Virus record (IMG/VR): IMGVR_UViG_2718218360_000013
Length of the DNA stretch: 40,343 bases
Source: a virus
Lineage: Duplodnaviria; Heunggongvirae; Uroviricota; Caudoviricetes
Direction: 5' to 3' (one strand)
Both the position numbers and the translations under genes were made by a program. The notes under the pieces were generated by a model. The model did no database searches. It was not told the origin of the DNA and saw only the letters and a program-made list of their open reading frames with translations. Positions 936 to 1,113 of this stretch are shown here, one piece after another; position 1 is the first letter of the stretch, and the number at the start of each line of letters is the position of its first letter.

Positions 936-1113
936 AATCGATCGACAAAAACGATCGATTCGATTTGTTTAATTGATACAACAAATAGATTGAAAAGTCA
1001 TCAACAATGATTCAGGGAGGTGATTATTTACTTAAAGAAAACGAAGAGTTAGGTGGTGAAAACGATCATAAAATGATCATTTTATTGACTTTTTATACAG
1101 TGAAGGTAGGATC
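936..1113. promoter_or_regulatory. Putative com-mom regulatory region with five clustered GATC (Dam) sites, four of them inside two palindromes
   Basis: GATC at 940, 953, 1064, 1075, 1110; perfect palindrome AATCGATCG-N7-CGATCGATT at 936-960; GATCAT-AAA-ATGATC at 1064-1078; AT-rich, upstream of com. Confidence 0.5.

Follow-up and report, generated by a model that had tools for sequence, protein, structure and literature searches.

Phage DNA modified by Mom resists many restriction enzymes, and the protein is toxic to the host. In bacteriophage Mu, the promoter Pmom is under the control of Dam and OxyR (PMC3378877), and the description of the Dam/OxyR operator goes back to Bolker & Kahmann 1989 and Hattman & Sun 1997, as these are cited in PMC3378877 and PMC2909390. 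In the Mu sequence, three GATC sites lie 109, 91, and 78 nt before the com ATG (18/13-bp spacing); next come the C box TTATgccccaATAA, a T6 run, and TAAGAT. From the mom reverse primer printed in PMC3378877, the +1 position is located ~22 nt before com.

Two other operators of this type have been described. In the gtr operon of phage P22, a GATC pair with 13-bp spacing lies inside one OxyR half-site, and its methylation abolishes OxyR binding (PMC2909390). The promoter-proximal GATC pair, at −46/−33, overlaps the −35 region (PMC2909390), and gtr has two such 13-bp pairs, in the alternative half-sites A and C. Reduced OxyR uses half-sites that are ~32 bp apart (PMC4856963). The chromosomal agn43 (flu) operator of E. 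coli, which serves OxyR/Dam phase variation, contains three GATC sites with 19/13 spacing, and the genes that it regulates are unrelated to mom. The agn43 transcription start was reportedly mapped at GATC-I by Wallecha et al. in 2002.

Here, we compare with these systems a region with five GATC sites upstream of com and mom, in a stretch of viral DNA of 40,343 nucleotides that was analysed as a whole (hereafter called the “window”). The coordinates of the features discussed below are collected in Table 1.

Genomic context of the com–mom locus

Bases 1–1500 of the window match many E. coli chromosomes of the serogroups O157, O26, and O111 at 100% identity, including that of Sakai, in which the corresponding region is annotated as “prophage Sp18, Mu-like phage”. 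We assign the window to an Sp18-type Mu-like prophage of E. coli, in reverse orientation. The annotated copy is a complete Mu-like prophage, with the genes for mom, com, the invertase, tail, head, and lysis proteins, a Mor/C-family activator, Gam, and the transposase, and its insertion point is a DUF1367 gene of a lambdoid prophage. The host, E. coli, has both dam and oxyR.

The mom gene is ~71% identical in DNA sequence to the mom genes of Mu and D108, and com is preceded by the Shine-Dalgarno sequence AGGAGG at 903–908. The window and Mu thus have the com–mom operon and a phage-encoded C-type activator in common. The neighbourhood on the far side is different. In Mu, the invertase gene gin runs into the mom operator, which overlaps its end, whereas ~3.3 kb separates gin from com in the window. 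This stretch (893–4258) carries a sialate-esterase/DUF6645 gene, DUF1378, DUF826, and a 617-bp spacer; such a gene set is typical of late regions in Stx-type lambdoid phages. From DUF826 to com, the sequence is a hotspot of mosaicism, where the relatives carry at least four alternative cassettes.

Two annotations elsewhere in the window deserve mention. RefSeq lists a “tRNA-OTHER” at 20873–20952 (+), and a search of the whole window with ARAGORN gives neither a tRNA nor a tmRNA. At 39915–40193 (+), in a coding gene that belongs to the flanking lambdoid prophage, the Rfam family 5_ureB_sRNA (a Helicobacter family) scores 86.5 bits, a match that is probably spurious or due to a contaminated family. 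The same stretch contains three GATC sites in 45 bp (40101–40145) and a 14/20 OxyR-like match at 40057–40103.

Table 1. Coordinates of the features in and around the com-upstream region of the window
Feature	Position	Strand	Basis or remark
mom, Mom adenine-modification enzyme, 245 aa	1–738	−	ORF; RefSeq “protein mom”
com, zinc-ribbon translational activator of mom	692–892	−	Pfam Zn_ribbon_Com, E 1.9e-12; RefSeq
Conserved proximal com–mom regulatory module	893–1003	−	In every Sp18-type lineage, whatever the upstream cassette (alignments)
Hypervariable 13-nt patch, from the GATC pair to the com leader	923–935	−	At least 6 variants among 11 near-identical sequences
Palindrome AATCGATCG-N7-CGATCGATT, GATC 940–943 and 953–956	936–960		Homologue of Mu GATC-III/GATC-II
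Predicted OxyR half-site 2, ATCGTTTTTGTCGAT, 7/10 to ATAGnTnnnAnCTAT	941–955	−	Half-site scan
Predicted OxyR half-site 1, ATTTGTTGTATCAAT, 7/10, contains TATC (GATC-I remnant)	972–986	−	Scan, 16-nt gap
Possible third OxyR-like half-site, ATTGTTGATGACTTT, 7/10, weak	994–1008	−	7-nt gap to half-site 1
A/T-rich repeat and palindrome block, GATC 1064–1067 and 1075–1078	1059–1086		Just upstream of the −35 of the + strand promoter
Predicted sigma-70-type promoter, TTGACT (1085–1090)-16-TAGGAT (1107–1112), directed away from com–mom	1085–1113	+	Scan and conservation
Hairpin TATGTAGTAT-N16-ATACTACATA, stems conserved, loop variable	1121–1156		Repeat search and relatives
G+C-rich hairpin with U-rich run, terminator-like	1164–1193	−	Pairing kept via different stem sequences in relatives
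Predicted sigma-70-like promoter, TTTACA-18-TAGGAT	1240–1269	−	Kept in L056 and the L025-type cassette
Small zinc-ribbon ORF, 55 aa (MKEPVCPACK...CPACSP), unannotated	1304–1471	+	Shine-Dalgarno AAGGAG at 1285–1290
Invertase (gin)	4259–4819	−	Annotated copy
C-type activator, Mor/C family	28148–28570	−	39% identical to Mu C, 27% to Mor

Number and density of the GATC sites

The initial annotation had described a cluster of five GATC sites upstream of com–mom, with four of them paired inside two palindromes. All of these elements are present where it had placed them, and both genes are read away from the cluster: the GATC sites occupy 940–943, 953–956, 1064–1067, 1075–1078, and 1110–1113. It had also called the density elevated, and this holds in part. 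The five sites, within 178 bp, form the densest GATC spot in the window, and when the spacer 893–1163 is taken as a prior region, they compare with 1.4 expected (nominal P ~0.005). However, an equally dense cluster appears somewhere in the 40 kb in 43% of the dinucleotide shuffles and in 25% of the uniform placements. Over the whole window, GATC is under-represented, with 134 sites, or one per 301 bp, as compared to 159 expected from the shuffles. A 4.7-kb part of the early region (29939–34613) contains no GATC at all.

We rejected density alone as evidence, as the window-wide scan statistics are not significant. Since density proves little, the case rests on the comparison with the relatives. 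In the alignments, conservation provides real evidence for function, and it covers only the proximal pair, 940/953, which is also the sole GATC pair with 13-bp spacing within the window.

The proximal palindrome and its relation to the Mu and agn43 operators

The proximal palindrome is a perfect 9-nt inverted repeat, and its GATC pair has the form ATCG-N7-CGAT, which is an OxyR half-site pattern. A 13-bp GATC pair arises when the ATAG/CTAT of the OxyR dimer site ATAGnTnnnAnCTAT is replaced by ATCG/CGAT. The − strand of the window reads tATCAATTAAAcaaatcgaaTCGATCGtttttgtCGATCGATTgc, and has ATCAATTAAA, TCGATCG, and GATCGATT in common with Mu; the pattern common to the two is ATCAATTAAA...TCGATCG-N7-xGATCGATT. 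In the alignment, the GATC-II and GATC-III columns are invariant, and the flanks are also in common. The similarity to agn43 is even closer: the 23-nt core ATCGATCGTTTTTGTCGATCGAT (937–959) is identical at 21 of 23 positions to the GATC-II/III core of agn43, ATCGATCGTTTnTnTCGATCGAT, as compared to 17 of 23 for Mu. In addition, the element lies directly upstream of the com–mom operon of a Mu-like phage, as does the operator of Mu.

The differences concern the third site and its surroundings. Mu has three GATC sites at 18/13-bp spacing, whereas only the 13-bp pair is present in the window. At the place of GATC-I, all Sp18-type copies have TATC, shifted by a few nucleotides; this remnant aligns with the GATC-I of both agn43 and Mu. 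Moreover, the window has ~9 extra nucleotides between the ATCAATTAAA block and GATC-II.

We regard the proximal palindrome, with fair confidence, as homologous to the OxyR/Dam operator of Mu mom, in a smaller form that is predicted to overlap the promoter. The initial annotation had proposed a switch analogous to that of Mu. For the proximal palindrome, the relationship appears to be homologous and not merely analogous, while the three distal sites belong to a separate cassette, to which the proposal does not extend.

Predicted OxyR half-sites

We scanned the window for two half-sites with the consensus ATAGnTnnnAnCTAT separated by a gap of 16–17 nt, as used by the reduced form of OxyR, and scored the matches out of 20. 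This model replaced one with the 7-nt gap of the oxidised form, because the consensus count with the 7-nt gap was not discriminating: the proven site of Mu scored 13/20, within the range of the shuffles. With the 16–17-nt gap, the proven operators are the top matches in their sequences, at 16/20 for agn43 (ATAGAATAAAACGAT-17-ATCGTTTATATCGAT) and 14/20 for Mu (ATAGAAAACGACGAT-16-ATCGGTAATACAGAT).

The best match in the window is ATTTGTTGTATCAAT (986–972)-16-ATCGTTTTTGTCGAT (955–941), which covers both proximal GATC sites and scores 7 + 7 = 14/20, with the gap and the score both equal to those of Mu. Only three positions in the 40-kb window reach a score of 14. Shuffles of the local A/T-rich composition reach 14/20 in 8.7% of cases, so that the consensus count by itself is modest evidence, and single half-site scores of 7/10 are common by chance. 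Among the relatives, two half-sites with a 16-nt gap constitute the best match in most of the enterobacterial lineages, and in L056, a more diverged locus, the position aligned to half-site 1 scores 7/10 with a 16-nt gap, as read by eye. The weak third half-site is partly conserved in the L036/L046 lineage.

The placement of both GATC sites in one half-site, at 13-bp spacing, is shared with agn43 and gtr. As in agn43, the second half-site lies one extra helical turn upstream; the gap in agn43 is 17 nt. The distal sites were not among the top 10 half-site matches or the top full-site matches; the distal pair has 11-bp spacing and matches the OxyR half-site at only 4–5 of 10 positions by hand count. 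The arrangement of gtr, in which both pairs have 13-bp spacing within OxyR half-sites, is therefore not reproduced here: one pair fits, and the cassette with the other is dispensable. Literature searches returned no binding, methylation, methylome, expression, or transcription-start data for the locus.

Layout of the predicted operator and promoter

Between the end of the predicted operator and the com ATG there are 48 nt in the window, as compared to 75 in Mu. These 48 nt contain no C box (TTAT-N6-ATAA or CCAATAACC), no T run, and no TAAGAT. In Mu, the operator lies upstream of the C box (centred at about −43.5) and of a weak promoter with the T6 run and TAAGAT, and this order is not found here. 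The earlier description of the region as differently organised is borne out: there are two GATC sites instead of three, the site is ~27 bp nearer to com, and no room is left for a Mu-type C box. The same short layout occurs in L004, L056, and L057. An isolated observation is the presence of CAATAACC inside the operator gap of L057.

With 48 nt to the com ATG, and a module of ~111 bp of which 46 are operator, the spacing implies that the predicted operator would have to overlap the com–mom promoter or its early transcribed region, as in agn43 and gtr. In the relatives with the short layout, the good −10-like hexamers TATACT, TATAGT, and TAGATT are located 7–9 nt after the last GATC. If the −10 element is at these hexamers, the GATC pair would lie at about −36 to −20, and a −35 placement similar to that in gtr is plausible. 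Alternatively, with a start further upstream, the pair would lie near +20 to +36, by analogy with agn43; in a switch of the agn43 type, the OxyR operator and its GATC sites overlap the promoter from −10 to about +40. The hypervariable patch at 923–935 is the probable spacer or −10 zone of the com–mom promoter, and its variation looks like promoter-strength tuning or repeated recombination. Some of the variants create TATCAT.

Simple promoter scans of the proximal module gave no convincing sigma-70 promoter. A sigma-70 position-weight scan was not used as evidence, as it failed its control by missing the real Pmom of Mu. A search for the site of the C orthologue, through dyads and k-mers that recur in the late regions of the window itself, was also set aside; it gave post hoc only ACTTTTC, at about chance level. 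On the − strand, this heptamer with a −10-like xxTATT occurs only upstream of com (998–992) and just upstream of the lysis genes, behind the gene for the C-type activator (28154–28148). The two may represent a late-promoter element in common, but this number of occurrences is about the chance expectation.

Conservation among com–mom loci

From ~100 com–mom loci in genomes and viral contigs, we obtained 56 distinct com-upstream regions. A GATC pair exactly 13 bp apart is present in 36 of them, from Enterobacterales, and encloses 15 different 9-nt spacers. Within the Sp18 family (11 distinct sequences), neither the two GATC sites nor the intervening spacer ever varies. The alignments indicate that the Dam/OxyR operator of Mu is conserved across most of the enterobacterial com–mom loci sampled. 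The operator module was not found in the non-enterobacterial com–mom loci among those collected.

The lineages differ in the sites that they keep. All three GATC sites are present in the Mu-type phages, the 18-bp pair alone is retained in one Com family, and the 13-bp pair alone in the Sp18 family and L056. The spacing is 31/13 in L004, L057, and L058, and other natural lineages also retain two of the three sites. L106 retains ATCG-N7-CGAT, though its third site is no longer GATC.

The stretch from 893 to ~1003 is almost unchanged in two lineages with different upstream cassettes, L027, which joins at ~1025, and L036/L046, which joins at ~1003. The L027 locus (E. coli AST198, NZ_AP043606.1) has the same com gene and proximal GATC module, and the distal cassette is absent. 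At 1225–2431 of L027, a DNA cytosine methyltransferase gene replaces mom, and it likewise overlaps com.

The distal cassette

The distal GATC sites (1064, 1075, and 1110) lie within a cassette that spans ~1026–1290. This cassette has been retained in L056, a relative with 82% identity in Mom, and is absent from both L027 and the L036/L046 lineage, which keep the proximal pair. The location of the distal three in a separate cassette that pair-keeping siblings lack argues against the five sites forming one switch.

The sequence GATCATAAAATGATC at 1064–1078 is an interrupted inverted repeat, GATCAT-AAA-ATGATC, which extends to 1059–1083 with 10 of 11 positions complementary. It overlaps a perfect 18-bp palindrome, ATAAAATGATCATTTTAT, at 1069–1086, as well as an 11-bp tandem repeat, AAAA(C/T)GATCAT. 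This block is followed by the predicted + strand promoter, which has the counterpart TTGACT-16-TAAGAT with an unrelated spacer in L056. Hexamers kept while the spacer diverged are the signature of a working promoter. GATC 1110 overlaps the 3′ end of the −10 hexamer, and L026, L111/L112, and L113 no longer have this site; of these, L111/L112 and L113 still contain TAGGAT. GATC 1075, which is 6–7 nt upstream of the −35 hexamer, is the only distal GATC kept in L056, while GATC 1064 is specific to the Sp18 family and absent from L056. The sites 1064 and 1075 may have a role; they are invariant across the Sp18-type copies, as is all of the sequence surrounding them.

The likely target of the + strand promoter is the 55-aa zinc-ribbon ORF. 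It is retained in both states of a 1-nt indel, and L056 has a counterpart in the same place with 43% identity. Searches of Pfam and PHROGs gave only weak zinc-ribbon matches and ruled out an Ogr/Delta-type or Com-type protein, and a protein database search returned only near-identical copies. RefSeq instead annotates an ORF of 154 aa at 1007–1471, which would cover the distal sites. We rejected it as a real gene because it is frameshifted in four variants, and its part upstream of 1304 is probably spurious.

On the opposite strand, the predicted promoter and the terminator-like hairpin could give an RNA of ~80 nt. The candidate sRNA unit, 1155–1269 (−), consists of the promoter, a conserved stretch of 45 nt, the hairpin, and a U-rich tail, and is tandemly duplicated in L026. 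If the zinc-ribbon gene is read from the promoter at 1085–1112, the candidate RNA would be antisense to its 5′ leader. Rfam scans of 700–1600 found no known RNA family.

Discussion

We propose that the region contains two elements: a proximal one, the OxyR operator of com–mom, which shares its ancestry with that of Mu, and the distal trio, part of a dispensable cassette with its own promoter. From the sequence comparisons, we consider this reading probable. It would work in the following manner.

Repression: The OxyR operator is predicted at ~941–986, with the palindrome at 936–960 as its downstream half. If the site works as in Mu mom, agn43, and gtr, OxyR in its reduced form would bind when GATC 940 and 953 are unmethylated or hemimethylated, and would thereby block transcription.

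Release: Full Dam methylation of 940 and 953 would, by analogy with these systems, prevent OxyR binding. This would allow the synthesis of the toxic Mom protein late in the lytic cycle, probably with the aid of the C-type activator.

Distal cassette: The distal trio would not be required for the mom switch, and would be associated with the promoter that fires toward the zinc-ribbon gene. Any effect of Dam at these sites would act on this divergent promoter, not on mom.

How do other explanations compare? An improbable extension is that the operator was rebuilt in the manner of agn43 and gtr, with a two-GATC OxyR half-site across the core promoter, and that Mom expression is bistable and not just induced late, with the cassette—promoter, antisense sRNA, and zinc-ribbon gene—as a second Dam-sensitive layer. 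If it were true, only a fraction of the induced cells would release Mom-modified, restriction-resistant progeny.

It is also unlikely that the clustering is a matter of chance or composition, and that the sites are ordinary Dam targets. This explanation applies most to the distal three: clusters as dense arise in 25–43% of the randomised windows, several close variants have lost GATC 1110 but kept the −10 hexamer, and GATC 1064 is lineage-specific. For the proximal pair, the exact 13-bp spacing of both conserved GATC sites in many diverged lineages and the homology to two proven OxyR operators speak strongly against it.

A single epigenetic switch made of all five sites, in which OxyR (or Lrp, as in pap) would occupy either the distal or the proximal pair and set a heritable ON or OFF state of mom, seems distinctly unlikely. 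Two GATC pairs ~111–124 bp apart in one intergenic region do recall such systems. Heritable states of this kind occur in gtr, pap, and opvAB, the gtr operon has its two 13-bp pairs in alternative OxyR half-sites, and three consecutive OxyR-like half-sites of 7/10 are found at 941–1008. However, the distal pair has neither the spacing nor the half-site match that OxyR would require of it, lineages with com–mom and the proximal pair lack the distal cassette, L056 has a single distal GATC left, and the distal sites coincide with a promoter in the opposite direction.

The proximal palindrome could instead be the site of a dimeric phage regulator, the C-type activator or another, with the GATC sites as incidental components; we give this little likelihood. 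The perfect 9-bp dyad lies where an activator or repressor of com–mom would act, and the phage encodes a C orthologue while the module has no Mu-type C box elsewhere. Nevertheless, AATCGATCG occurs nowhere else in the window, including upstream of the lysis, head, and tail operons, and this absence counts against a late activator, which must also serve those operons. Moreover, ATCG-N7-CGAT is shared with Mu, where it is the OxyR site and distinct from the C site, and the element also occurs in the chromosomal agn43, which has no phage activator. Across the lineages, the GATC sites are fixed while the spacer varies freely, which also counts against this explanation.

GATC pairs 11–13 bp apart are the kind of substrate that SeqA binds. 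The sites might act through SeqA and the timing of hemimethylation, by transient silencing after replication, and not through OxyR; the pair spacings suit this, and SeqA is an ancillary factor in opvAB. We hold it to be very unlikely, as it accounts neither for the conserved context ATCG-N7-CGAT nor for a second half-site across a gap of 16 nt, nor for the homology with OxyR operators, but SeqA could act in addition to OxyR. Least credible is an RNA hairpin at the proximal palindrome, as a com–mom leader structure or an antisense terminator: a terminator scan flags 936–960 on the + strand, and a long inverted repeat (906–928 with 994–1016) brackets the palindrome, but on the + strand there is no gene that would end there, a U run is missing from the − strand copy, the arms do not co-vary as a stem across the lineages (the GATC sites are constant, with a variable loop), complementary arms are lacking in Mu and many other relatives, and the L036/L046 lineage does not have the bracketing repeat.

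An OxyR operator homologous to that of Mu beside a dispensable cassette would make the locus a variant of a known switch, not a new kind of mechanism. The Sp18 lineage would have an operator that overlaps the promoter, with a core almost identical to that of the agn43 operator. The natural versions of the operator, with all three GATC sites or with just the 18-bp or the 13-bp pair, amount to a series of natural mutants that bears on how many GATC sites the competition with OxyR needs, and where. As Mom protects the phage DNA and is toxic to the host, its silencing would matter for the carriage of the prophage in Shiga-toxin-producing E. coli.
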